DNA of 64,000 nucleotides from Escherichia coli (GCF_024700885.2 NZ_CP117016.1), one strand, 5' to 3'. Positions 4,225-53,375 are shown, counted from the stretch's first letter. The notes: generated by a model not told the origin, from the letters alone. Numbers and translations: made by a program.

Positions 4225-5445
4225 TTATCCCAGCAGACGGTGAATACGTTGCAGGCCGGTCACCAGACGATCCACTTCTTCATGGGTGTTATACATGGCC
4301 AGCGACGCCCGACACATCGCAGGAACGTTGTAATAGGCCATTAATGGCATAGCGCAGTGATGTCCGGTACGCACAGCAATGCCGTAATTATCGAGAAAAC
4401 TGCCAACATCATAGGCGTGGTGTTTACCAAGATTAAAAGCAATAACGCCAAGTCTGTTCTGGGGACCATAGAGTGTGAGATCCGGTACAGATTCCAGCTG
4501 TGATAGCGCGTAGTGCATCAGATTTTGTTCATACTCGGCTATATTATTAAGCCCCAGCGCCGACACATACTCCAGCGCCGCGCCAAGACCAATGATGCCC
4601 CCGGTATTGGGTGTACCGGCTTCAAACCGCCACGGTGCTTTGGTCCAGGTAGTGCCTTCACTCAGGCTGACGGTGGCGATCATAGAACCGCCCCCTTCCC
4701 ACGGCGGCATCTCCTGCAACAAGGCTTCTTTGACATAAAGAATGCCAATCCCAGTGGGGCCATACAGTTTATGCCCGGAGAACACGTAAAAATCGCAATC
4801 CAGCGCCTGAACGTCCACCGGATGATGCATCACCGCCTGAGCGCCATCCACCAGTACTTTTGCGCCATGCTGGTGCGCAAGCGTGATCATTTCCGCCAGC
4901 GGATTTTCCGTTCCCAGCACGTTGGAGACATGAGTAATTGCCAGCAGGCGAGTTTTCTCATCGAACAGATTAGGTAGCATCTCCAGTTGCAGCGTACCGT
5001 CGGGGTTGAGCGGGATCACACGCAGCTCTGCGCCAACGCGTGCGCAAAGCATCTGCCAGGGGACAATGTTAGCGTGGTGCTCCATCTGACTGATGATGAT
5101 GTTATCGCCCGCCCGCACATTGCTGTTACCCCAGCTATTGGCGACCAGATTGATCCCTTCCGTCGTGCCGCGGACGAACACCAGCTCTTCCGCCGAACGG
5201 GCATTAATAAACAGCGATGCCCGCTTGCGCACGTTCTCCATTTTCTCGGTCGCCTGGGCGCTTAAGGTATGAATACCGCGATGCACCGCGGCGTAGCCGT
5301 GACGATAAAACTCGGCCTCGGCGTCAATTACCTGGCTCGGTTTCTGCGCACTGGCGGCGCTGTCGAGATAAGCCAGCGGCAAACCGTTTACCTCACGAGA
5401 AAGCACCGGAAAGTCGGCCCGCACTTTGTCGACGGAAAAAGTCAT
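4225..5445 (-). CDS. sufS: cysteine desulfurase SufS (PLP-dependent)
   Basis: 406-aa ORF with a class-V aminotransferase signature ([10 protein letters not shown]) and the active-site Cys region (RTGHHCA). Confidence 0.92.
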
Positions 5446-7443: not shown

Positions 7444-8931
7444 TTATCCGACGCTGTGTTCAAGACTGATGGCGAGGAGTTTTTGTGCTTCAACGGCAAA
7501 TTCCAGCGGCAGTTCTGAGAACACGTCTTTGCAGAAACCGTTAACAATCATCGAGATGGCGTCTTCTTCGCTGATCCCGCGTTGCAGGCAGTAAAACAGT
7601 TGATCTTCACCAATACGTGATGTCGTTGCCTCGTGCTCCAGTTGTGCGCTGTTATTGCGACATTCGACATACGGGAAGGTATGCGCCCCACAATTAGCGC
7701 CAATCAGCATTGAGTCGCACTGAGTGAAATTGCGCGCATTGGTTGCCGTCGGCATGATTTTCACTAAGCCGCGATAACTGTTCTGACTATGTCCGGCAGA
7801 GATCCCTTTCGAGATAATGGTCGATTTGGTGTTTTTACCGATGTGGATCATCTTGGTGCCGGTATCCGCTTGCTGATGACCGCTGGTCAGTGCCACTGAG
7901 TAAAACTCACCAATGGAGTTATCGCCGCGCAAAATGCAGCTGGGATATTTCCACGTAATCGCTGACCCGGTTTCTGATTGCGTCCATGACATTTTGCTGT
8001 TTTCGCCTTCGCACAAAGCACGCTTGGTGACGAAGTTGAGAATACCGCCGATGTTGTTATCGCCAGGGAACCAGTTTTGTACCGTGGAATATTTCACCTC
8101 GGCGTTTTTATGGATGATGACTTCCACCACCGCCGCGTGTAACTGATAGCTGTCACGCACCGGAGCGGAACAGCCTTCAATGTAGCTAACGTAGCTGTCT
8201 TCGTCGGCCACCAGAATGGTGCGCTCAAACTGCCCGGTTTTTTCCGCGTTAATACGAAAATAGGTGGAAAGTTCCATCGGGCAGCGCACGCCTTTAGGCA
8301 CATAAATAAACGTACCGTCAGAGGCTACCGCCGCATTAAGTGCGGCAAAGAAGTTGTCATTCCCCGGCACCACGGTGCCGAGATATTTACGCACCAGTTC
8401 CGGGTGATCGTGGATCGCCTCGCCAAAGGAACAGAAAATAATTCCCTGCTCCGCCAGTTTTTCGCGATAAGTGGTGGCAACCGAAACAGAGTCGAAAATG
8501 GCATCCACCGCCACCTCTTTGCCTTCCCGCACGGGAACGCCCAACTGCTCAAACGCCGCCTCCACCTCTTTACTTAAAAAGGCGTTCGCGCCAGTTTGCT
8601 GCACCGCGCCGGGTTCAGAGGCGCAGCTGTCGTCACAATTACCGCACGATGGTGCCGAATAGTAGCTGTAATCCTGATAATTCAGCTTGTCGTAGTGCGC
8701 TTTCAACCAGTGCGGTTCTTCCATCTCCAGCCATGCGCGATAGGCGTTGAGACGAAACTCCAGCATCCACTCCGGCTCATTACGCTTCGCCGAAATTGCG
8801 CGCACCACCTCTTCGTTTATCCCCTTTGCCAGCTCATCGGTGGCTAACTGGGTGAAGAATCCTTCTTTATAATTCAGCGGGCCGCCGGTCCAGGTTTTGA
8901 CATCGTCAGTTGCTTCAGTATTACGAGACAT
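7444..8931 (-). CDS. sufB: Fe-S cluster scaffold SufB
   Basis: 495-aa product when started at [10 protein letters not shown] (ORF-track start trimmed by 13 codons); suf operon synteny. Confidence 0.9.
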
Positions 8932-26302: not shown

Positions 26303-27592
26303 ATGTCGGATGACAAATTTGATGCCATTGTGGTCGGTGCGGGCGTTGCCGGTAGCGTTGCCGCACTGGTCATGGCGCGAGCCGGGCTGGATGTCCTGGT
26401 GATAGAACGCGGCGACAGTGCCGGATGTAAAAACATGACCGGCGGGCGTCTTTATGCCCACACACTTGAAGCGATTATTCCAGGCTTTGCAGCATCAGCG
26501 CCGGTAGAACGCAAGGTCACACGCGAGAAAATCTCCTTCTTAACCGAAGAAAGCGCCGTTACCCTCGACTTTCACCGCGAGCAACCAGATGTTCCGCAAC
26601 ACGCGTCTTATACCGTATTGCGTAATCGTCTGGACCCGTGGTTGATGGAACAAGCCGAGCAGGCGGGCGCGCAGTTTATCCCGGGCGTACGCGTCGATGC
26701 GCTGGTTCGTGAAGGAAACAAGGTCACTGGCGTGCAGGCCGGGGATGATGTTCTTGAAGCGAATGTGGTGATTCTGGCTGATGGCGTTAACTCGATGCTT
26801 GGCCGCTCGCTGGGAATGGTTCCCGCTTCCGATCCGCATCATTACGCTGTTGGTGTTAAAGAGGTTATTGGCCTCACACCAGAACAGATCAACGATCGCT
26901 TTAATATTACGGGCGAGGAAGGTGCCGCCTGGCTGTTTGCCGGTTCCCCTTCTGACGGCCTGATGGGTGGCGGATTCCTCTATACCAACAAGGATTCCGT
27001 ATCGTTGGGGCTGGTTTGTGGATTGGGTGATATCGCCCATGCGCAAAAAAGCGTGCCGCAAATGCTGGAAGATTTTAAACAACACCCCGCCATTCGCCCG
27101 CTGATCAGCGGCGGCAAACTGCTTGAATATTCCGCGCATATGGTGCCGGAAGGCGGTCTGGCAATGGTGCCGCAACTGGTTAACGAGGGCGTGATGATCG
27201 TTGGTGACGCCGCAGGCTTCTGCCTGAATTTGGGTTTTACAGTCCGCGGCATGGATTTAGCCATTGCATCGGCTCAGGCTGCCGCCACAACGGTGATCGC
27301 CGCCAAAGAACGCGCGGATTTCTCCGCCAGCAGTCTGGCGCAATACAAACGTGAGCTGGAACAAAGTTGTGTTATGCGCGATATGCAGCATTTCCGCAAG
27401 ATCCCGGCGCTGATGGAAAACCCGCGTCTGTTTAGCCAATACCCACGAATGGTCGCCGACATCATGAACGAGATGTTCACCATCGACGGCAAACCTAACC
27501 AACCGGTACGCAAAATGATCATGGGACACGCGAAGAAAATTGGACTGATCAACTTGCTGAAAGATGGCATTAAGGGAGCAACCGCGCTATGA
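26303..27592 (+). CDS. ydiS: FAD-dependent oxidoreductase (FixC/ETF-QO-like)
   Basis: 429-aa ORF with N-terminal dinucleotide-binding motif VVGAGVAGS. Confidence 0.85.
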   Translation: MSDDKFDAIVVGAGVAGSVAALVMARAGLDVLVIERGDSAGCKNMTGGRLYAHTLEAIIPGFAASAPVERKVTREKISFLTEESAVTLDFHREQPDVPQHASYTVLRNRLDPWLMEQAEQAGAQFIPGVRVDALVREGNKVTGVQAGDDVLEANVVILADGVNSMLGRSLGMVPASDPHHYAVGVKEVIGLTPEQINDRFNITGEEGAAWLFAGSPSDGLMGGGFLYTNKDSVSLGLVCGLGDIAHAQKSVPQMLEDFKQHPAIRPLISGGKLLEYSAHMVPEGGLAMVPQLVNEGVMIVGDAAGFCLNLGFTVRGMDLAIASAQAAATTVIAAKERADFSASSLAQYKRELEQSCVMRDMQHFRKIPALMENPRLFSQYPRMVADIMNEMFTIDGKPNQPVRKMIMGHAKKIGLINLLKDGIKGATAL

Positions 27593-40267: not shown

Positions 40268-40708
40268 TTACTTAATAACAGTAACCACAGCCACAAGCAC
40301 GGCCATCGCAGACAGGACAATACCTGTGAGTAACCAAGTCTGATTTGCAAATGATTTCTGAAGTTCAGTACGATGCTCAGCCATCTCAACTTTCAGAGAC
40401 TGGCGTAAATCAGCCATCTCAGACTTCAGGGATTGGCGAGATTCTGCCATCTCAAGCCTCAACCCTTCGCGAATCTCCAGTACATCAGATTTGGTAGCAA
40501 AGGATTCGCTTCTTGTGGTGAGAGTAATCAGGTTGTTTTTGATTTCAGTCACATCACTTTCCAGGCAACTGACCCGCCGTTCAAGGTCGTCATTCATGCC
40601 ATCACCTCCATCATTACCACTTCCTGTTACTTGGTTGTTGGATACATTATAGGCATTCTCTTTCTTTTTTCTGAACCGCGAAATATGTGCAACATTCTCT
40701 GCCATCAC
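40268..40708 (-). CDS. hypothetical tail-anchored coiled-coil membrane protein (prophage cargo)
   Basis: 146 aa; three 11-residue repeats (EMAESRQSLKS / EMADLRQSLKV / EMAEHRTELQK) and a single C-terminal TM helix (WLLTGIVLSAMAVLVAVVTVIK); start overlaps the stop of the upstream gene (ATGA). No family recognised. Confidence 0.55.
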   Translation of the reverse strand: MMAENVAHISRFRKKKENAYNVSNNQVTGSGNDGGDGMNDDLERRVSCLESDVTEIKNNLITLTTRSESFATKSDVLEIREGLRLEMAESRQSLKSEMADLRQSLKVEMAEHRTELQKSFANQTWLLTGIVLSAMAVLVAVVTVIK

Positions 40709-41067
40709 TTCTCATCACCCTGCTTGCCTACCCAGTTCATAAAGGCCCGGGCCGAGTAACGATGAACAAACCCACATCTGTTACAGGTAAGTCGGAATTC
40801 ATAGTTATGGATATTTTCCCGATCATGTCCCTCATATCCCGGATACCCAGTAAATGGACCGATGTAATCAAGCATAACAAAAGTGCCTAAATCACACTCC
40901 TCAGCAGTTTTCGGCTCAGGCCCCACCTCAACAATATTCGTCAAATACATGTACATATCCGTATCGCCACACGACAAACATTTTTCATTCGTAGACGACT
41001 CATTGAGAAAACGCGCAAAATTATCGAGCGTTGCCATTCTTTTAAGCTCATCTAAATGAAACTTCAC
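40705..41067 (-). CDS. hypothetical Cys-motif protein (possible zinc ribbon), prophage cargo
   Basis: 120 aa with CLSC and CNRC pairs; begins 3 nt after the integrase stop. No family recognised. Confidence 0.55.
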   Translation of the reverse strand: MKFHLDELKRMATLDNFARFLNESSTNEKCLSCGDTDMYMYLTNIVEVGPEPKTAEECDLGTFVMLDYIGPFTGYPGYEGHDRENIHNYEFRLTCNRCGFVHRYSARAFMNWVGKQGDEK

Positions 41068-44400: not shown

Positions 44401-44790
44401 ATGATTGACGCTCATGACTTCACAAGATGGGTGCGCACACAGGACACCCGTCTGGCTCCCATTCTTCGGGGATTATTTGATCTCTACATTCGTGGTCGTG
44501 ACAACAGAGCACGCACCACAAAACCGGAGAATGTGGATACCCTTTATTTCACAGTAGACGACTGCTACCGCGTGGACTTCACACCACACGGACTGGCGTT
44601 GCACTGCCTGACACCGCACGGCGAATCACTGCTGGCGTATTACGACTCCCCGGCCTCCGTATTTGCGGCAATGCTGGCGCATCGCACTGCTGGCGGGTGT
44701 GCCTCGCTGAGTGAATACACCGCTGAGTTTAACCGCCTTTCCGCCCTCTTCTCGCAGGAGTGGCAGCGCGTGACGGGATACCAGCCATGA
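44401..44790 (+). CDS. hypothetical phage early protein (P2 B-gene position)
   Basis: 129-aa ORF immediately upstream of and overlapping the A gene start. Confidence 0.5.
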   Translation: MIDAHDFTRWVRTQDTRLAPILRGLFDLYIRGRDNRARTTKPENVDTLYFTVDDCYRVDFTPHGLALHCLTPHGESLLAYYDSPASVFAAMLAHRTAGGCASLSEYTAEFNRLSALFSQEWQRVTGYQP

Positions 44791-47627
44791 GTGAGTTTGC
44801 ATGGAGCTGGAATGAACCACGGCCAGCCATTGATCCGGCCAGATTTACGGAGCGCAGGCAGGAAACTGAAACCGACCTGCAACGCGCCATCCGTTACTAC
44901 CTTGAGGCAGACAAAAAGGCCCAAGAAGAACAGGAAGCGAAAGAGGAAGCCTTTTTCGCACAATCCGCCATGGGTAAAAAACTCATGGCATCCCTTGAGG
45001 AAGCCGGACAGCGTGAAAAGCTGGCACAAAGCATCATCAGTAAGCGCCGGGCAACAGAACAAGACCCGGTGGCCCGTGCCTTTGCCACACTGAAGGTGCT
45101 TCCCGTTTATCTGCGAGAACCCCTGAGCCGCCACCTCTCTTTCCTGCGCAAAAAACAGGAAGCCGATCGCCGGAAAGGCAAAAAGAGCTGGCAGGCGGAA
45201 CGCTATGCACGCGGAACCCTGCGCAAAATATTCGAACGTCTGGATCGCACTGACGGACGCTGGCTGACACAGGGTTATCGCTCCATTGCCGGACGCGAAC
45301 GCCTGGACGATTTGCTTTACCTGCCGCAGCTCAACAAACACCAGGTACAGACACTGGCCACCATGACGGCAGCAATGTTCAGTAGCACATTCGAAAAACT
45401 CTGCGATGGCTTTGGCGCGACCGATGGTGAGCTGACCATGGATGTAACGCTGAAGGCGTATCAGATGCTGGCCCGCATGGCGTTACATCTGCACGCCATG
45501 CCTCCACATTATGACGCACTGACAACAGATAGAGATCGGAGGAACGAACCGGACACAGAGCTGCTGCCAGGCGCAATCCTTCGCCTGACCTGTGCTGAAT
45601 GGTGGAAACGCAAACTGTGGCTATTACGTTGCGAGTGGAGAGAAGAACAACTCCGCGCCGCCTGTCTGGTTTCCAGAAAAACATCGCCCTATCTGAGCCA
45701 GGACGCGTTAAGCGAGTTTCGCGCACAGCGCGAGAAAACACGCGATTTCCTGAAAGGTTTCATGCTGGAAAACGAAGACGGGTTCACGATTGATCTCGAG
45801 ACAGTGTATTACGCGGGAGTAAGTAACCCGGTTCACCGTAAGGCAGAAATGATGGCCACCATGAAGGGGCTGGAACTTCTGGCCGAGGCCCGTGGTGACA
45901 AAGCGGTGTTTCTGACTGTCACCTGCCCGTCAAAATACCACGCCACAACAGAGAACGGTCATCCGAATCCCAAATGGAACGGGGCCACCATGCGCGACTC
46001 CAGCGATTACCTGGTTAACACGTTTTTTGCGGCGGTCCGCAAAAAACTGAACCGCGACGGTCTGCGCTGGTATGGCATCCGCACGGTGGAGCCTCACCAT
46101 GACGGCACCGTGCACTGGCATATGATGGTCTTTGCTCATCCGGAAGAAATCGACAGCATCGTGGCCATCACCCGCGATATTGCCATTCAGGAAGACCGCC
46201 ACGAGCTGGGCAATGATATTACTCCGCGCTTTAAGGTGGAGTATGTCGACGGCTCAAAAGGCACACCAACCAGCTATATCGCGACCTACATCGGAAAAAA
46301 CCTGGACAGCCGCGCCGTGGATGGCATCGACCCGAAAACGGGCAAACCACGCGTTGACCACGAAACAGGTAAATCAATGGCCGAGAGCGTGGAGCGCGCC
46401 ATCGGCTGGGCGCGCCTTCACCGGGTCCGCCAGTTCCAGTTCTTTGGCATCCCCTCCCGTCAGGTGTGGCGTGAACTGCGCCGCCTTGCCAGCCAGATGG
46501 CACGCAACCCGGAAGGCCCGCAACGGCTGAAGGATGACGCAATGGATGCGGTACTCGCTGCCGCTGATGCCGGGTGTTTTGCCTCCTACATTGAAAAACA
46601 GGGTGGCGTACTTGTTCCACGCAAGGACTACCTGATTCGCACCGCCTACGACCTCGCAGATGAGCTGAACGATTACGGCGAACAGAGCGTACAGATTTAC
46701 GGGATCTGGTCACCACTCATCGGGGAATCCTCCCGTGTGTGCACGCACCCGGATAACTGGAAGCTGGTAAGACGTAAACCGGAAGCGGAAGACAGCACCC
46801 GCGAAAATGATTTTGACCTTCAGGGCGGCCCTGCCGCCCCTTGGACTCGTGGCAATAACTGTCCCCGTGTACAGGAAACAGACAACAACGGGACAGAACA
46901 GCCGGAAGAACGGCCAGCACCGTGGCCGCAGCTCCCTGACGGCGTTGAAGTGAACGAATGGATGCATTCACTGAAACGGCACGAACGCCGGGCGCTGATG
47001 CGTTCGCTTCGTGACAAACAGGCAAAAAACAGCAGCGATGAAATGCAGAACTGGACACAGAGCCGCAAACAGCCACAGCCTTTACCTGATAACCACGAGT
47101 TACTCGCTAAAGAATGGCGGGAGTCTGCTGAATCTCTCGGCCTGCATATTGGTGAACAGCAGATGCAGCACCTGTTACGGGGCGGCAGTCTGTACGTTGA
47201 CGGCAGCATCATTGCACCGCAGGGATTTGAAATTGTACGCAAACCGGATACCCGCCCGGACAGCCGAATCACGCAGCTCTGGCAACGCCTGAGCCGTAAT
47301 CACGGCGTAAGCAGCACGGAGATCCGCCATAACCCGGTCGCCAGCTATCTGGAACAGCTGGGGGCATCAGACCCTGAAGCCGCCGCACGCCTGGCATCCA
47401 CACTTCAGCAAGACCAGAACACCATGAAAACCCCCGTTACCGTGCTTTCTGACATGCTGCGCGCCATCCGTGACGCAGAGCACGCACAGAGAATCAGTGA
47501 AACCACTGAACGCGCCCACCGCAAAGCAGACCTGCTGCGGGGTAGCCTGACCAGTGGAAACAAAAAACAGACAGAAACGGGACTCACAAATCCCGTAAAT
47601 GAGCAAAAAACGTGCCGCGATATATGA
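44787..47627 (+). CDS. P2 gpA-type rolling-circle replication initiator with long C-terminal extension
   Basis: 946 aa from MSEFAWSWNEP; HUH-type motif VHWHMMVFAH and downstream Tyr-containing region (YIATYIGKN) typical of P2/186 A proteins; last 200 aa or so is low-complexity. Confidence 0.8.
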   Translation: MSEFAWSWNEPRPAIDPARFTERRQETETDLQRAIRYYLEADKKAQEEQEAKEEAFFAQSAMGKKLMASLEEAGQREKLAQSIISKRRATEQDPVARAFATLKVLPVYLREPLSRHLSFLRKKQEADRRKGKKSWQAERYARGTLRKIFERLDRTDGRWLTQGYRSIAGRERLDDLLYLPQLNKHQVQTLATMTAAMFSSTFEKLCDGFGATDGELTMDVTLKAYQMLARMALHLHAMPPHYDALTTDRDRRNEPDTELLPGAILRLTCAEWWKRKLWLLRCEWREEQLRAACLVSRKTSPYLSQDALSEFRAQREKTRDFLKGFMLENEDGFTIDLETVYYAGVSNPVHRKAEMMATMKGLELLAEARGDKAVFLTVTCPSKYHATTENGHPNPKWNGATMRDSSDYLVNTFFAAVRKKLNRDGLRWYGIRTVEPHHDGTVHWHMMVFAHPEEIDSIVAITRDIAIQEDRHELGNDITPRFKVEYVDGSKGTPTSYIATYIGKNLDSRAVDGIDPKTGKPRVDHETGKSMAESVERAIGWARLHRVRQFQFFGIPSRQVWRELRRLASQMARNPEGPQRLKDDAMDAVLAAADAGCFASYIEKQGGVLVPRKDYLIRTAYDLADELNDYGEQSVQIYGIWSPLIGESSRVCTHPDNWKLVRRKPEAEDSTRENDFDLQGGPAAPWTRGNNCPRVQETDNNGTEQPEERPAPWPQLPDGVEVNEWMHSLKRHERRALMRSLRDKQAKNSSDEMQNWTQSRKQPQPLPDNHELLAKEWRESAESLGLHIGEQQMQHLLRGGSLYVDGSIIAPQGFEIVRKPDTRPDSRITQLWQRLSRNHGVSSTEIRHNPVASYLEQLGASDPEAAARLASTLQQDQNTMKTPVTVLSDMLRAIRDAEHAQRISETTERAHRKADLLRGSLTSGNKKQTETGLTNPVNEQKTCRDI

Positions 47628-47703: not shown

Positions 47704-48663
47704 ATGAAAATTTGTATCGACGACGGCTCCACCAACATCAAGCTGGCATGGACTGAGAACGGCGAACGCCGCAACGCCATCAGCCCGAACAGCTTCAAGT
47801 CGGAATGGTCTGCGCCGTTCGGTGGCACGCAGCCCGCGAACTACATGCTTGATGGCGTGCGCTATGGTTTTGATCCGGTCAGCGATCGCTTTATCCAGAC
47901 GACCGACACACAATACCAGTACAGCGATGTGAATGTCATTGCCATTCATCACGCGCTGGTCAAATCAGGCATCACGCCACAGGAGGTGGATGTGGTTGTC
48001 ACCCTGCCACTGAGCGAGTATTTCGACACAAACGCACAGCCGGACATGGCCAACATCAACCGCAAAAAAGCAAACGTTATGCGCCCGGTGGAATACCAGA
48101 ACGGCGAAGCATTCACTATCCGTAATGTACGGGTTATGCCTGAATCCATTCCGGCTGGCTTTAAAGCACTGGCTGACATGAGTCCGTTTGAATCCCTGCT
48201 GATTGTGGATTTAGGTGGAACCACGCTGGATGTGGCAAAGGTTCAGGGACAACTGGCAGGTATCAGCCAGGTGTTTTGCGATCCACACGTAGGCGTTTCC
48301 CTGATGGCCGATGCAGTACTGTCGGTGATGGCCACTAACGGTATGCGTACCAGTCACCACATCGCCAATACCATTATCGAACATCGCCATGATGAAGCCT
48401 GGCTGCGCCAGCACATCCACAATGACGCGCATTACGCCAGCCTGATGGCGGTTATTCGTGAAAAGGAAGAAACACTGAAACAACGCGTGATCCGCGCGCT
48501 GGCGGGTTTTTCGGGTTACGGGCGGGTGATGGTTGTCGGTGGCGGGGCGGAGATTGTGGCACCCGCTATCCGCGAAGCCTGCGGAGTTAATGCGACTTTC
48601 ATCGCGGACGGGGTGCCACAGTTTGCTCTGGTTAATGGGCTGTACGCAATGGACAAGGAGTAA
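47704..48663 (+). CDS. ParM/StbA-like actin-type ATPase
   Basis: 319 aa; actin-fold motifs IDDGSTNIKL (phosphate 1), DLGGTTLDV (phosphate 2), VVGGGAE (adenosine); collinear over full length with recalled plasmid R1 ParM (MLVFIDDGSTNIKLQW…YSDVNVVAVHHALL…VMPESIPAGY…DLGGTTLD…GGGAEL). Confidence 0.8.
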   Translation: MKICIDDGSTNIKLAWTENGERRNAISPNSFKSEWSAPFGGTQPANYMLDGVRYGFDPVSDRFIQTTDTQYQYSDVNVIAIHHALVKSGITPQEVDVVVTLPLSEYFDTNAQPDMANINRKKANVMRPVEYQNGEAFTIRNVRVMPESIPAGFKALADMSPFESLLIVDLGGTTLDVAKVQGQLAGISQVFCDPHVGVSLMADAVLSVMATNGMRTSHHIANTIIEHRHDEAWLRQHIHNDAHYASLMAVIREKEETLKQRVIRALAGFSGYGRVMVVGGGAEIVAPAIREACGVNATFIADGVPQFALVNGLYAMDKE

Positions 48664-48667
48664 ACCA

Positions 48668-48979
48668 ATGACGACACCAACCAGGCGGATAAGTTTCTAT
48701 CTGAAGCCTGCGGCCGTCAAGAACGAAAGCGAAGCATGCGCCTGGCTGGACAGCCTTACACCGGAAGCCCGCAAAAGCGGCCAACGCGTGGCTTTTCTGG
48801 CCGGGCTGGCACTTCTGAAAATGAATCCGGCAGAGGCTTACCGACTGGCTGCATGGGCTGACGATGAGGCGTTATCAGTGACACAAACCAGGACAGAACG
48901 CCCCCTGTCACAGCCAGTACCAACCGCACAGATAACCAGTCAGATGGCCGGAAATATCAGGGCGTTATTTCCTGAATAA
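48668..48979 (+). CDS. ParR-like DNA-binding adaptor
   Basis: 103 aa from MTTPTRRISFYLKPAA...; N-terminus resembles recalled R1 ParR (RRTIAFKLNPDV…LDSIP.GERS…AALTAGLALY); starts 5 nt after the parM-like stop. Confidence 0.65.
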   Translation: MTTPTRRISFYLKPAAVKNESEACAWLDSLTPEARKSGQRVAFLAGLALLKMNPAEAYRLAAWADDEALSVTQTRTERPLSQPVPTAQITSQMAGNIRALFPE

Positions 48980-48986
48980 CACAACG

Positions 48987-49006
48987 TCAGGGCGAGTTCG
49001 CCCTGA
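48987..49006 (+). terminator. hairpin TCAGGGCGA-GT-TCGCCCTGA after the parR-like gene
   Basis: Perfect 9-bp inverted repeat; no strong T-run, so terminator function is tentative. Confidence 0.35.
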
Positions 49007-49042
49007 TCTCCATCTCAGAACATAAACAAGAAGAGCGACTTA

Positions 49043-49426
49043 ATGAGCAAAATCAACTATCAGGCATTACGTGAACGTTATTCACCTGCACCAGTACCAA
49101 AATGCCCTATTTGCTGCGAAGAAATGTCAATTCAGCGAATATCTGGAGCACAGGTTGTTTATGGCTGCTCCGGTTATGGTGATGATGGAGATTTCAAAAT
49201 TGGTCGAACTCTTGCCGACGAACATTATGAAAAATCACGCGTAACAGTGTTGGATGTCGGGGATCCTGAAGTATTGGCGCTACTTGATTGGCTGGAAACC
49301 AAAGACAACCGAATCGCTGAACTGGAAAAAATCGCCACTGACTATGCACTTAAATTCCAGAAAGCACAGGACGCATTAAAGTACGCCGCTTTGCTGCATA
49401 GCAGGTCAGCGCAGCTACAAGACTAA
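49043..49426 (+). CDS. hypothetical protein with N-terminal Cys motif (CPICC...GCSGYG) and C-terminal coiled coil
   Basis: 127-aa ORF; lower GC than the phage backbone by eye; no family recognised. Confidence 0.5.
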   Translation: MSKINYQALRERYSPAPVPKCPICCEEMSIQRISGAQVVYGCSGYGDDGDFKIGRTLADEHYEKSRVTVLDVGDPEVLALLDWLETKDNRIAELEKIATDYALKFQKAQDALKYAALLHSRSAQLQD

Positions 49427-49454
49427 CTTAAAGCGGAAGATTAATACATGGTGA

Positions 49455-49481
49455 GTCGGGGTAATTTGTTTTTATCCCGAC
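49455..49481. terminator. bidirectional terminator hairpin between convergent island genes
   Basis: GTCGGG...CCCGAC stem with a T-rich loop and flank, between the plus-strand 127-aa gene and the minus-strand membrane gene. Confidence 0.45.
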
Positions 49482-49516
49482 AAATAAACAAAAAAGTGGA
49501 CTATCTCTGTAGTATC

Positions 49517-50047
49517 TTATTCAGCATCGTCTCGTGCAGTCTGTGCATACGTCACAACAACGCCCAATGCATTAGTTTTCTTTTCAACATAGATAATATT
49601 GTCATATTCATAGTTACCATACGGATAGCAAATAAGAATATTTTTATGCAGATCGGGATCATCAACAAACGCTCCGGAACAGCTTCTTGAACTACCGGAT
49701 GTATACTCATACGGTGCAACATATGATGATGTTACTCCTGGTAAAAAATAAGTCACCATCATAAGAGGGATAATCAGGAATATCCCTGTAAGAATGCAAG
49801 AGCCAGCATAAACCTTCAGGTATTCCGACAGTCCTTTCCAGCCACTTTGCTTCACTACCCCCCTCTTCACCAGAAACAAGGAGAAGAAAAAGGACATACC
49901 CATACTACATAAGATGTAATAATTGGATATACGCGAATTAAGATATGTAATCCTGTAGATATCTGCCCTCCACCAGTAAAAGAGGAAAATAATCCCTAGC
50001 ACTGAAACAGTCATGCAAATCAAATAAGGATATGAATCTTTCTTCAT
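49517..50047 (-). CDS. hypothetical low-GC integral membrane protein (moron-like)
   Basis: 176 aa; three predicted TM segments (YLICMTVSVLGIIFLFYWW, YYILCSMGMSFFFSLFLV, CILTGIFLIIPLMMVTYFL) then a roughly 70-aa soluble C-terminal domain; markedly AT-rich compared with flanking phage DNA (by eye). Confidence 0.6.
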   Translation of the reverse strand: MKKDSYPYLICMTVSVLGIIFLFYWWRADIYRITYLNSRISNYYILCSMGMSFFFSLFLVKRGVVKQSGWKGLSEYLKVYAGSCILTGIFLIIPLMMVTYFLPGVTSSYVAPYEYTSGSSRSCSGAFVDDPDLHKNILICYPYGNYEYDNIIYVEKKTNALGVVVTYAQTARDDAE

Positions 50048-50095
50048 GTCTTGCGCTCATTAAAATTTCCCTGCTACGAACAAATTTACCATCCG

Positions 50096-50250
50096 TTTTT
50101 TGCGCAGAAAACAGCACGATGCACACTGCACGATAGTGCACAAATTTGCACAATTTTTTTGAACGACTTTTTACCCTTCCGGCCCGCATGGCGGCTGGAT
50201 CCGTCAAGGATCCGTGCGTGCACAAAAAAACGCGTTTTTTCTGCGCGCAG
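50096..50250. repeat. structured non-coding region: inverted repeats GCGCAGAAAA/TTTTCTGCGC, TGCACA iterons, GGATCCGT x2 at 11-bp spacing
   Basis: Seen directly; lies where the cos/packaging site of P2-like phages maps (between the accessory island and the portal gene). Confidence 0.5.
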
Positions 50251-50526
50251 GTGACGGGGGAACAGCCCGCGTTTCAGGGGGTAAATAGTATTCCCTGAGC
50301 GATGTCGCAGCGACATAACAGAATGGCCATATTTCTCACGCTGAGCGTGAAAAAGATGTGAGGGCTTTTGATTTGATGGGGTGAAAGGTAAGGCCGTCAA
50401 AATCGAACTGAGGCGGTGAGAACATGCAGTCAGCGCGGTGGGATTGCGTAAGAGTCTGACCGTCGATGATGGTAATAAACAGGAAAGCGTCGTGAAATTA
50501 TCTGATTGATACAGGAGCTGGAGAGT

Positions 50527-50551
50527 CGGGGCATAAATTTTTTATGCCCCG
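50527..50551. terminator. strong hairpin CGGGGCATAAA-TTT-TTTATGCCCCG downstream of the portal gene
   Basis: Perfect 11-bp inverted repeat immediately past the minus-strand Q stop; probable terminator of the Q-P transcript. Confidence 0.55.
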
Positions 50552-50577
50552 GCGAAGCAGCGGACAAGCGAAGCGCG

Positions 50578-51624
50578 TCAGGATGTGGGCTGGGTGTCTA
50601 ACAGTGCGTAAGGGTTAAAGCGAATCACCTCTTCGCCAAGCCAGTCATTGATGTGCTTCATGGCCTCCATGACGGGCATCAGCTCGTTAATTGCGTAAAC
50701 CCGCGCGGCCTTCTCCACATCACCAAACGCACTTTTTTCGCCTGGCATCGCCCCCATCAGTTGCGGCGGAACGCGGTGCGCAGCCAGCACATCATCACGG
50801 GATGCCACCTTAACATTCATGAACTCATCCTTTGCGGTGATCTGCTGGAACGGCAAAATTTGCACCCCCTCTTTGCCACCGTTGGGCGCATGAATGAGCA
50901 CGTTTTTAAACGCACCACCACCACGTGCACCCTGTAGCGTTTCTTTCAGGGAGTCCATGCTTTCGCGGTTTACCTGCGCTGCACCGATGTAGATGATGCA
51001 CCCGGCGTGGGATCCGTTGTCGTAATACAGTTTTCTGAACATGTCCGCCGAATGAGACAGGCTGGCCGAGAGTAATGCGCCGAGATATTCCGGCATGCCG
51101 TAGATTTCCTGGTTAATGTCAGGATTCATCAGGTGGCACACTTTGCCAGGGCGAAACTGAAACGCGTCCTTGCCATCCTGCACATACCACCATGATTCAA
51201 GATCGCTTCCGCGTCGCATGTATTTCGCCAGGGCGTGCCGTAATTTAAGCGGTTCGCCGAGCATATTGCTTCGAAGCTCAAGGAATGCGTTACCGAACAC
51301 AAACCAGTCCAGCGCCAGCGCCGAGAAATCCTGCCGGGAAAGCAACGGGTGCGGGATGTAGCAACCGAGTAATACATTGCGCTTAAAGTAAAGCGCAGAC
51401 TGATGCCAGGACGTTTGCCGGGCAGCTCTTGCCAGACCGTACCAGTCCACCGGGGTTTCATACCACCGCCCGTTATCAGCACAGTACATATTGTCCAGCA
51501 GGTCATGCCCGGTCAGGCGATAAGGACCATCAAATGTGAATGCACTGAGCGATGATTCTTTCCTGAGCGCATCAGCGAGATCAATGCGTGAACTCATGCG
51601 CACTTTTTTATTTTTTCTACTCAT
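50578..51624 (-). CDS. portal protein (P2 gpQ-like)
   Basis: 348 aa; position and orientation as P2 Q; stop overlaps the terminase start. Confidence 0.8.
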   Translation of the reverse strand: MSRKNKKVRMSSRIDLADALRKESSLSAFTFDGPYRLTGHDLLDNMYCADNGRWYETPVDWYGLARAARQTSWHQSALYFKRNVLLGCYIPHPLLSRQDFSALALDWFVFGNAFLELRSNMLGEPLKLRHALAKYMRRGSDLESWWYVQDGKDAFQFRPGKVCHLMNPDINQEIYGMPEYLGALLSASLSHSADMFRKLYYDNGSHAGCIIYIGAAQVNRESMDSLKETLQGARGGGAFKNVLIHAPNGGKEGVQILPFQQITAKDEFMNVKVASRDDVLAAHRVPPQLMGAMPGEKSAFGDVEKAARVYAINELMPVMEAMKHINDWLGEEVIRFNPYALLDTQPTS

Positions 51625-53375
51625 CAGAACTCCATAACCGTGAAACGCTCGTTTTCTCCTTCGCCGCCAATTGGTTCGTTAATGACAGCAAGCATGGTTG
51701 CCCACGCAAGGTCGCCGTGGCTGATCCCCCTCGCGCGGTCCGTTTCGTAAGTGATAAAGCCGCCCGGTGTTTTCACCTTACGCACGGCGTTAAAGGCCGC
51801 GACCAGCTCGCGTTCGGCGCGATCGTATTCCCACCGCCCGGCACGCATTATTTGCAGCATTTTCAGTACCAGCGACCGTTTTGATGACAGCGTGAAGGTG
51901 TACGGAATAGCGGCAGGGAAAAACCGTTTCACTATCTGATAAACAGCCTCCCCGTTCCCGCCCGTCACATCAATGCCGATGTGTTCCACGTTGTAGCGAC
52001 ACGTGAACTCTTCAATGACTCTGGCCTGTTCTTCAAACTCCAGCCCCTGAACGCGTCGCGTCTCCACCGTTCGAAAACGGCCACCAGGAACAGACGGAGG
52101 AACCACCACGGACACAGCGCCGCTGTCGCCGTTGCCACTGCTGCCGTTTGCGTCATACCCAATCCATACCGGACGATTCCCCATCGGGCGGGGAGCAAAA
52201 GGTTTCCAGTCTTTCCAGTCGTCGTATCCGTCAACACCGCAGCCAATCAGGATATTCAGGTTAAATGCCGATTCCCCTTCGCGGACAAACTCACACATAT
52301 AGAGATTGAGGAACTCGTCTTCGGTGTTTTCATCACGAATTTCGTCGATATCGGTGTGTTCCCAGCCGTGATTAACCACATCTTCCAGCGTGACAATTTG
52401 CCGCCACGTCCGGTCAGGGCAGATAAGCCCGTTATGCAGCGTTTTCCAGTCCACAGAAAAACGCTGGCGTTTATGCGTGGCCTTTTTCTCGTTCCAGCGG
52501 TCGCCGTTCCAGTAGGCGTATGCCTCGTGCGTTTCGGTGGATGGCGTGGAGAAGTAGGTGCGCCGCAGTCCGCTGAGGGTTGCCATAGCGCCAGCCACCT
52601 TGCGCAGTTCAGCAAAGCGACTGACCCAGAAAAATTCATCAAAATAAAAATTGCCCGTATAGGACTGTGCCGACGCAGCAGAAGTGCCGAGAAAATGCAG
52701 CTCTGCGCCGTTGGAGAGGATGATTTTATCGCCCCCTTTCAGCTCCACATCAACTTCAGCCGCGGCCTTCTGAATAATGCTTTTAAACTGGAACGCCTGA
52801 CGACGCGACGCAGACAAAAAAATCTGGTTACGCTGGTAAGGTTGCGCCACATCGTCACGCAGCGCCATCAGCAGCGCTTCCTGTGCAAAATACCAGGTCG
52901 CCCCAATCTGTCGGGATTTCAGGATCATCCTGTTACGTATCCCTGCTTCCCTGCAAAGGGTCAGGGAGTCAAACCAGCCCCGCTGATGCCACTCCAGCCT
53001 GCTGATGATTTTTTCCCGCAGTGCGGCAATCTGTTCCGGCGTGAAATGATTTTTAAGCTTTTTCGCCCGGCCTTTCTTTCCTGTGGCCGTCGCATCCGGC
53101 TGGCCATCATGCAGTTTTTTAAGCTGCCGGGTCAGCAGGTCTATTTCCTTGAAGTCACCACCTGTTTTATTCTGTTTTTCAGTGAGCTGGATGAGGCGCG
53201 CATCGATGGACTGCGTGACACGCTGCACGGGTGGCGTTTCATCCCACTGGTCGCGTTTTTTCCACGCATAAATCGTGTTCGGGTTTATTCCCATCAGACG
53301 TGATATTTCTGCGGGCGGATAACCCTGCCAGTAAAGTTGCCGCGCACGCTGGCGCACAAAAGCGTCCTGAATCAT
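51624..53375 (-). CDS. terminase large (ATPase) subunit (P2 gpP-like)
   Basis: 583 aa; P2 late-operon synteny, divergent from O-N-M-L. Confidence 0.8.
   Translation of the reverse strand: MIQDAFVRQRARQLYWQGYPPAEISRLMGINPNTIYAWKKRDQWDETPPVQRVTQSIDARLIQLTEKQNKTGGDFKEIDLLTRQLKKLHDGQPDATATGKKGRAKKLKNHFTPEQIAALREKIISRLEWHQRGWFDSLTLCREAGIRNRMILKSRQIGATWYFAQEALLMALRDDVAQPYQRNQIFLSASRRQAFQFKSIIQKAAAEVDVELKGGDKIILSNGAELHFLGTSAASAQSYTGNFYFDEFFWVSRFAELRKVAGAMATLSGLRRTYFSTPSTETHEAYAYWNGDRWNEKKATHKRQRFSVDWKTLHNGLICPDRTWRQIVTLEDVVNHGWEHTDIDEIRDENTEDEFLNLYMCEFVREGESAFNLNILIGCGVDGYDDWKDWKPFAPRPMGNRPVWIGYDANGSSGNGDSGAVSVVVPPSVPGGRFRTVETRRVQGLEFEEQARVIEEFTCRYNVEHIGIDVTGGNGEAVYQIVKRFFPAAIPYTFTLSSKRSLVLKMLQIMRAGRWEYDRAERELVAAFNAVRKVKTPGGFITYETDRARGISHGDLAWATMLAVINEPIGGEGENERFTVMEF

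Follow-up and report, generated by a model that had tools for sequence, protein, structure and literature searches.

The window analysed here is a 64,000-nucleotide stretch of an Escherichia coli genome (GCF_024700885.2, NZ_CP117016.1). Core genes, from pykF to btuC, occupy positions 1 to ~40,060. Just after btuC, at ~40.06-40.27 kb, starts a P2-like prophage of the P88/Xuanwuvirus type, which extends past the end of the window. Within this prophage, positions 49517-50047 carry, on the minus strand, an open reading frame (ORF) that runs from ATG to stop and encodes a protein of 176 aa. The ORF is found in the gpA-gpQ locus, beside cos, at ~200 bp from a cos-like 19-mer. The features of the region are the following:

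44760-47627, plus strand: replication endonuclease gpA, long (955 aa)
47704-48663, plus strand: ParM
ending at 48979, plus strand: ParR-like gene
49043-49426, plus strand: Ea22-like gene fragment, whose 3' part is replaced by the cassette
49414-50125, no strand assigned: moron cassette of 712 bp, made up of a putative promoter region, the ORF and a 3' hairpin, in place of 258 bp of a related prophage
49455-49481, minus strand: hairpin, possible weak terminator, 36 nt 3' of the stop codon
49517-50047, minus strand: the 176-aa ORF
50083-50091, minus strand: candidate extended -10 element TGGTAAATT, from manual reading
50106-50111, minus strand: weak -35-like TTTTCT, 17 nt upstream of the candidate -10
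50126-50165, minus strand: GTGCA-repeat motif TTGTGCAAATTTGTGCACTATCGTGCAG, on the backbone side of the right cassette junction
50250-50268, plus strand: cos-like 19-mer GGTGACGGGGGAACAGCCC, aligned in register with P2 cosR and identical to the P2 cohesive end GGCGAGGCGGGGAAAGCAC at 13 of 19 positions
50578-51624, minus strand: portal gene, gpQ
51624-53375, minus strand: terminase gene
beyond the terminase gene, plus strand: scaffold gene

The ORF is convergent with the early operon (gpA, ParM, ParR and the Ea22-like fragment), as the initial annotation had stated. It is not on the opposite strand to all its neighbours, as was also stated, since the portal (50578-51624) and terminase (51624-53375) genes share its minus strand. 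Nor does it lie at the island edge: attL is ~9 kb to the left, after btuC, so that the ORF is internal to the prophage. A 530-bp non-coding stretch separates it from the portal gene, and a hairpin is present 3' of the portal stop codon, at the position of P2's annotated tQ terminator. If cos is cut at the 50250-50268 19-mer, the ORF would be the last gene at one end of the packaged linear genome.

Two other regions of the prophage deserve mention. The true edge-of-island cargo site is at 40268-41067, between attL and the integrase gene, where two ORFs of 145 and 120 aa run in the same direction within DNA of lowered GC content (0.44). They match PHROG 9415 and PHROG 4293, both families without assigned function, and the sole PADLOC match at this site is a marginal one to LmuB (E = 0.0075). 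Directly 3' of gpA, positions 47704-48979 carry a plasmid partition module of the ParM/ParR type (PHROG 691, E = 3.2e-90; PHROG 2515, E = 1.3e-57), also found in the prophages of strains EC958 and 2013C-3513. This module suggests an actively segregated, possibly episomal, stage of the phage lineage.

Borders and expression signals of the cassette

The initial annotation had described the ORF as the most compositionally foreign stretch of the prophage, and its composition bears this out. The GC content of the ORF is 0.386 vs. 0.511 window-wide, which corresponds to the 0.7th percentile of all 531-bp windows and to the 0.4th percentile within 40-64 kb. No other 500-bp bin inside the prophage is as low as the one at 49501-50000 (GC 0.394); the next is at 0.430. 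Flanking phage genes have GC contents of 0.53-0.56, and GC3 is 0.395 in the ORF vs. 0.55-0.63 in the gpA, ParM, ParR, portal, terminase and scaffold genes. Both GC and GC3 of the ORF are thus well below those of the surrounding phage genes.

Comparison with related prophages defines the borders of the foreign DNA. In the 2013C-3513 prophage, 95-96% identical, homology detected by BLAST is limited to 48908-49413 and 50126-50700. Backbone homology therefore ends at 49413 and resumes at 50126, and the 712 bp in between (49414-50125) replace 258 bp of 2013C-3513. At the same site, the latter prophage has a full-length, 196-aa Ea22-like gene, directly followed by cos and the portal gene. In the window, the corresponding gene at 49043-49426 is labelled “ead/Ea22-like, missing C-terminus” by PGAP and matches PHROG 368 over profile positions 1-136 of 239. 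Judging from these alignments, it is truncated by the insertion of the cassette. Ea22-like genes form a family of the lambdoid exo-xis region; here, the gene is part of the early operon of a P2-like lineage. The P88-like prophage of EC958 carries other cargo, namely a DUF4760 gene and a hypothetical gene, and its sequence diverges at the identical right junction. Hence, the gene is missing between the same flanking genes in close relatives and has a distinct composition. Such a gene is typical of morons and hotspot cargo, and the initial reading of it as a moron is well supported by the 712-bp foreign insert and its absence from a 95-96% identical prophage, as well as by the conserved upstream region and 3' hairpin, the place in the cos-proximal gpA-gpQ hotspot and the presence of this cassette in phage 434 and O157 prophage Sp3.

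The right junction is bordered by the GTGCA-repeat motif, which is kept in P2-like prophages whatever their cargo (~1,000 E. coli genomes at 92-97% identity, with ~9% query coverage). It is also found in Salmonella P2-like prophages and 5' of the homologue in phage 434; its sites elsewhere in our set of loci are L001 ~4890-4930, L007/L008 ~7880-7930 and L018 4001-4065. Possible roles of the motif are a regulatory site common to these phages or an anchor at which cargo is exchanged by recombination. That it might contain a P2 Ogr-type late promoter (TGT-N12-ACA) was considered and rejected, because the centre of the dyad would be ~68 nt, and not ~55 nt, from the putative start.

Inside the cassette, the candidate extended -10 element would start a transcript near 50076. 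The pattern TGnTAA(A/T)(T/C)(T/A) is kept in the five alleles aligned there (5/5), that is, those of the window, L007 and L008, which have P2-like E. coli or Salmonella neighbours, of the E. coli MSB1_4I prophage, and of lambdoid phage 434. A generic promoter scan found no sigma-70 site in 48900-50700, so that the candidate promoter rests on manual reading. The mRNA start of the P2 old-tin region is at a comparable distance from cosR. On the 3' side of the ORF, the hairpin at 49455-49481 is part of a fold with a minimum free energy of -14.9 kcal/mol, whose z-score of -1.76 is non-significant when taken alone, and it is not followed by a T-run. It is retained in phages 434 and mEp332, with one G-C pair changed to A-T on both sides of the stem.

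Integrity of the reading frame and predicted structure of the protein

PGAP labels 49517-50092 as a frameshifted pseudogene. Together with the genuine truncation of the neighbouring Ea22-like gene, this label would fit a pseudogene in decay or an ORF that arose by chance in AT-rich junk. However, the flag derives from reference proteins of 200-223 aa whose starts are annotated at least 36-72 nt upstream. Immediately 5' of the ATG of the ORF are in-frame TAA and TGA codons, and this ATG, which opens the sequence MKKDSYPYL..., is the conserved one. Indeed, homologues of 166-180 aa from Salmonella, Enterobacter and more distant bacteria (173-176 aa for the Salmonella and Enterobacter ones) share the initial methionine within the motif MK(K/N)xSYPYL. 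The part said to be missing, an N-terminal extension of the 200-223-aa entries, does not occur in the Salmonella and Enterobacter proteins, and its coding region runs over the conserved promoter-like element. All 176 residues are collinear with homologues down to 28% identity. In particular, the alignment with the phage 434 homologue is gapless over residues 1-176 (79.5% aa and 78% nt identity), with a dN/dS of 0.10 at a dS of 1.2 (0.107 for the transmembrane part and 0.079 for the C-terminal domain), and the AlphaFold model described below has a mean pLDDT of 92.6. The pseudogene reading is thus already largely refuted, and we give it hardly any weight. Sequence comparison shows M1 to be the true start, and the ORF to be intact and under purifying selection. 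The “frameshifted” label and the 200-223-aa entries look like the propagated misannotation of an over-extended start codon; the over-long start touches the database proteins P0002-P0036 of our collection.

The initial annotation had proposed three transmembrane (TM) helices and a soluble domain of ~70 aa, and hydropathy and AlphaFold agree on this architecture. Three hydrophobic segments are seen, with Kyte-Doolittle 17-mer peaks of 2.31, 1.82 and 2.25, and the ~70 aa that come after them are polar. The AlphaFold model, obtained with a 34-sequence alignment, contains the following elements:

49961-50032, minus strand: TM helix 1, aa 6-29 (hydropathy 2.31), predicted to run from cytoplasm to periplasm, with the near-invariant W26 at its outer end
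49865-49936, minus strand: TM helix 2, aa 38-61 (hydropathy 1.82)
49745-49840, minus strand: TM helix 3, aa 70-101, preceded by a K/R-rich loop (aa 61-79) predicted to be cytoplasmic
49535-49735, minus strand: five-stranded OB-like beta domain, aa 105-171, with the invariant C123 and C140, predicted to be periplasmic

In addition, a short strand in loop 1 (aa 34-36) pairs with the C-terminal domain in the model. Among 29 homologues, the mean number of K and R residues is 1.8 in the N-terminus, 2.3 in loop 1 and 4.3 in loop 2, that is, 6.1 inside vs. 2.3 outside in the predicted orientation. The C-terminal domain has exactly two cysteines in 27 of the 29. Because of this K+R distribution, of the two invariant cysteines and of the pairing of the loop-1 strand with the C-terminal domain, we favor an N-in topology in which the N-terminus and loop 2 would be cytoplasmic, and loop 1 and the C-terminal domain periplasmic. 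A predicted disulfide between C123 and C140 probably staples the OB-like domain. A lipoprotein signal was considered and discarded: C11 is not conserved, and “YLIC” does not qualify as a lipobox.

The protein family and its genomic contexts

HMMER, run exhaustively over 1.84 billion representative proteins, returned 48 of them at E <= 1e-3, and a word-indexed search of 5.8 billion proteins gave 61 matches, all of them unnamed Enterobacteriaceae proteins. AFDB50 neighbours widen the family to Pantoea, Mixta, Hafnia, Proteus and Pseudomonas. The family is small, proteobacterial, solitary and unnamed. Its whole architecture is retained down to ~28% identity; C123, C140 and G162 are invariant, and W26, G125, L133, I137 and K156 are near-invariant. 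Among the library families, only PHROG 1416, which is without functional annotation, includes the protein (E = 1.6e-45, aa 90-175 aligned to profile positions 2-87 of 90). Truncated gene calls were probably used to build its 90-position profile, which would explain why this spans only TM3 and the C-terminal domain.

The remote homology searches matched no characterised exclusion or defence protein. Pfam gave nothing significant for the query or for 34 family members, NCBIfam gave no match for the query, and PADLOC gave none for the query and eight distant members. With the C-terminal domain, a sequence-profile search of the PDB returned nothing below E = 0.1, and the domain profile, run against a database, matched nothing but fragments of family members. 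Hence, this domain is not seen in other architectures. In the literature, no paper was found on the gene or on any family member.

A full-length copy is present in 958 of 5,426 complete E. coli genomes (~18%), and about 60-76 of these 958 have the exact P2-type allele or arrangement. IMG/VR contains 60 viral loci, and a tblastn search against 50,697 phage records detected homologues only in phages 434, 2B8 and mEp332. Salmonella P2-like prophages (66% aa identity) and the P2-like prophage of E. coli MSB1_4I (~69% nt identity over a partial match) carry diverged alleles at this slot, with their orientation unchanged. A lambdoid allele, 77-80% identical, is found between xis and exo, antisense to the pL operon, in phages 434, mEp332 and 2B8, in O157:H7 86-24 and in Sakai Sp3 (ECs_0804). 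By its sequence, the cassette is thus one that recurs in unrelated temperate phages. Its placement antisense to pL, along with its upstream region, in 434, mEp332 and Sp3 suggests selection for independent expression in the prophage state. In phages 434 (record 27086-27256; L001 4755-4925) and mEp332 (L002 1632-1802), a 56-aa ORF annotated as “putative membrane protein” is found immediately 5' of the homologue, on the same strand. Because the P2-like cassette has no counterpart of it, this ORF is not an obligatory partner.

These contexts bear on a possible role in the carrier phage's own lytic cycle, such as lysis timing or genome delivery or exit, with expression by read-through of the late P-Q operon. 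The P2-like copies are indeed co-directional with, and downstream of, the terminase and portal genes. However, the hairpin after the portal stop codon stands at the position of the P2 tQ terminator, and the copies in phage 434 and O157 Sp3 lie far from the late genes, on the strand opposite to the early operon. Moreover, closely related P88-like phages do not have the gene, which is therefore dispensable for the lytic cycle. We regard such a role as quite unlikely.

Distant members of the family (28-45% identity) are chromosomal and lie outside recognisable prophages; therefore, the ancestral role may not concern phages. No conserved partner gene was found in any genomic context examined. One of these members, P0076 (33% identical; L081 6001-6975, metagenome contig SRR27027739_793, present on many contigs), has as its neighbour, 64 nt downstream and on the same strand, a gene for an orphan TolA C-terminal-domain protein of 134 aa, followed by an outer-membrane beta-barrel gene and then by phoPQ. 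This adjacency may hint at a link with the Tol system. Another member, 43-45% identical (L004-L006 1-9539), has two very large DUF4062/TPR (STAND-like) proteins encoded next to it; in the L005 variant, a gene for an anti-Pycsar Apyc1-like metallo-beta-lactamase also adjoins it. These surroundings resemble a defence island.

Proteins that confer immunity to periplasmic toxins typically have a small, disulfide-containing domain that faces the periplasm on an inner-membrane tether, an example being the colicin M immunity protein. The protein could thus come from a lysogenic-conversion or envelope-protection gene unrelated to phage entry, with an OB-like domain that would bind a toxin or a host factor, an idea we hold possible though doubtful. 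Its variants, namely orphan immunity to a periplasm-acting toxin (colicin M-type, another bacteriocin or a T6SS effector) or a modulator of, for example, Tol, share jointly in that same low likelihood. The small domain of the disulfide type predicted in the periplasm matches the design of immunity proteins, and the distant members occur in ordinary chromosomal neighbourhoods without phage genes, including P0076 with its orphan TolA C-domain gene on the same strand. A dN/dS of 0.08 in the C-terminal domain fits a conserved target better than a fast-evolving phage one. In contrast, no toxin gene is adjacent in any context examined, the TolA adjacency is limited to one lineage, and the E. coli and Salmonella copies are all in accessory slots of temperate phages, including a hotspot enriched in anti-phage genes.

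Possible function in phage exclusion and comparison with known systems

Experiments support the gpA-gpQ locus beside cos as a hotspot of anti-phage genes (Rousset et al., 2022, PMC9122126). Among P2-like elements, 19% have only unknown genes at gpA-gpQ, many of which are predicted to be antiviral (2026 preprint, 10.64898/2026.02.27.708500). The ORF, between gpA and gpQ and adjacent to cos, has the location of such hotspot genes. The reading that we prefer, while holding it as tentative and somewhat short of an even chance, is that of a prophage-expressed exclusion protein acting at the inner membrane, by analogy with known exclusion proteins. In this mechanism, a promoter belonging to the gene itself would drive its transcription in the lysogen. 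The periplasmic domain would bind a component needed by incoming phages for inner-membrane crossing, either a host factor of the inner membrane or periplasm or else the ejection or tape-measure apparatus of the phage itself. Superinfecting phages would then be excluded at genome entry, without killing of the cell. The initial annotation had pointed to superinfection exclusion or abortive infection, and what speaks for such a function comes from context and architecture. Recurrent capture by two unrelated temperate lineages, in orientations uncoupled from phage operons, suggests exclusion, and the conserved, binding-type domain that the model places on the periplasmic face of a solitary inner-membrane protein is consistent with it. 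Exclusion is favored over a toxin because the protein is single, solitary and constitutively tolerated.

In P2 itself, old and tin occupy the same slot in the same orientation as the cassette gene (minus, co-directional with Q and P, convergent with gene A). In both cases, the start region is ~150-175 nt from cos and the GC content is below that of the backbone. However, the annotation of P2 Old is that of an AAA family ATPase and exonuclease, and nothing in that of Tin points to a membrane, whereas the cassette protein has three predicted TM helices; it has no similarity to either.

P22 SieA, a protein of 162-164 aa with three TM helices, is located in the inner membrane and by itself blocks DNA injection (PMC10461980). 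By analogy, it appears to be the closest functional analogue of the cassette protein, which is likewise the product of a single, partnerless prophage gene, of similar size (176 vs. 162-164 aa) and with three helices by prediction. Homology with SieA was rejected (BLASTP E = 3.1; hhalign probability 0.2%). The conserved motif of SieA, FnRYPnEAnnFNK, is C-terminal and predicted to be cytoplasmic (PMC10461980). This motif is missing from the consensus of our family alignment. Thus, the conserved part is a predicted cytoplasmic motif in SieA but a Cys-paired beta domain, predicted to be periplasmic, in the cassette protein. T4 Sp and HK97 gp15 are small exclusion proteins, anchored in the inner membrane, that work against incoming phage from the periplasmic side. 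They differ from the three-TM cassette protein by their single-pass anchors, and no sequence relation to them exists, since the tblastn search of the phage records returned 434, 2B8 and mEp332 only. More generally, BLASTP, hhalign, tblastn, PADLOC and Foldseek detected no sequence or specific fold similarity to characterised exclusion proteins.

The initial annotation had also named abortive infection. In that case, an effector inert until infection would perturb the inner membrane and kill or arrest the cell, in the manner of Cap15 or RexB. The cassette protein resembles Cap15 and the S-2TMbeta effectors in having N-terminal TM helices followed by a compact beta domain. Foldseek places it in a looser AFDB50 group of proteins with helices and a beta domain (query-normalised TM-score ~0.6, E ~1e-7), one of which is annotated as “SMODS-associating 2TM beta-strand rich effector” (E = 3.8e-7, query-normalised TM-score 0.58). 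Furthermore, the hotspot carries many abortive-infection systems (PMC9122126). However, HMMs, topology and context oppose an S-2TMbeta effector. Membership was rejected, with no Pfam S_2TMBeta match for the query and 34 members and no PADLOC CBASS match for nine members. No CD-NTase or nucleotidyltransferase gene was found beside any member examined. Finally, these effectors have two TM helices, vs. three in the cassette protein, whose five-stranded OB-like domain with its Cys pair is predicted to be periplasmic. Abortive infection is therefore an unlikely reading, less so than a lytic-cycle role, and inner-membrane exclusion remains the one that we favor.

A wider proposal, which we consider rather speculative, is that the family is an unrecognised single-gene exclusion class, with three TM helices and a Cys-stapled periplasmic OB-like domain, present in ~18% of complete E. 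coli genomes. It would act by a new mechanism at the periplasmic face, for example by occluding a host factor for genome translocation, and, in the form of a 0.7-kb cassette with a promoter, would move back and forth between P2-like and lambdoid phages.

The analysis already yields an annotation correction, for the database starts of the 200-223-aa entries and for the PGAP flag. The bounded cassette and the upstream motif shared by P2-like and lambdoid phages also make a clean case of cargo exchange between unrelated lineages. These points apart, the gene is one among many uncharacterised hotspot genes and would not surprise a specialist, although it makes a good and inexpensive candidate for experiments. 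If the exclusion reading is true, a family overlooked by PADLOC, Pfam and NCBIfam would be a compact and widespread single-gene addition to the defence catalogue of E. coli and Salmonella. Being present in about one-sixth of complete E. coli genomes, including EHEC O157:H7, such an exclusion gene could affect the host range of phages used in therapy.
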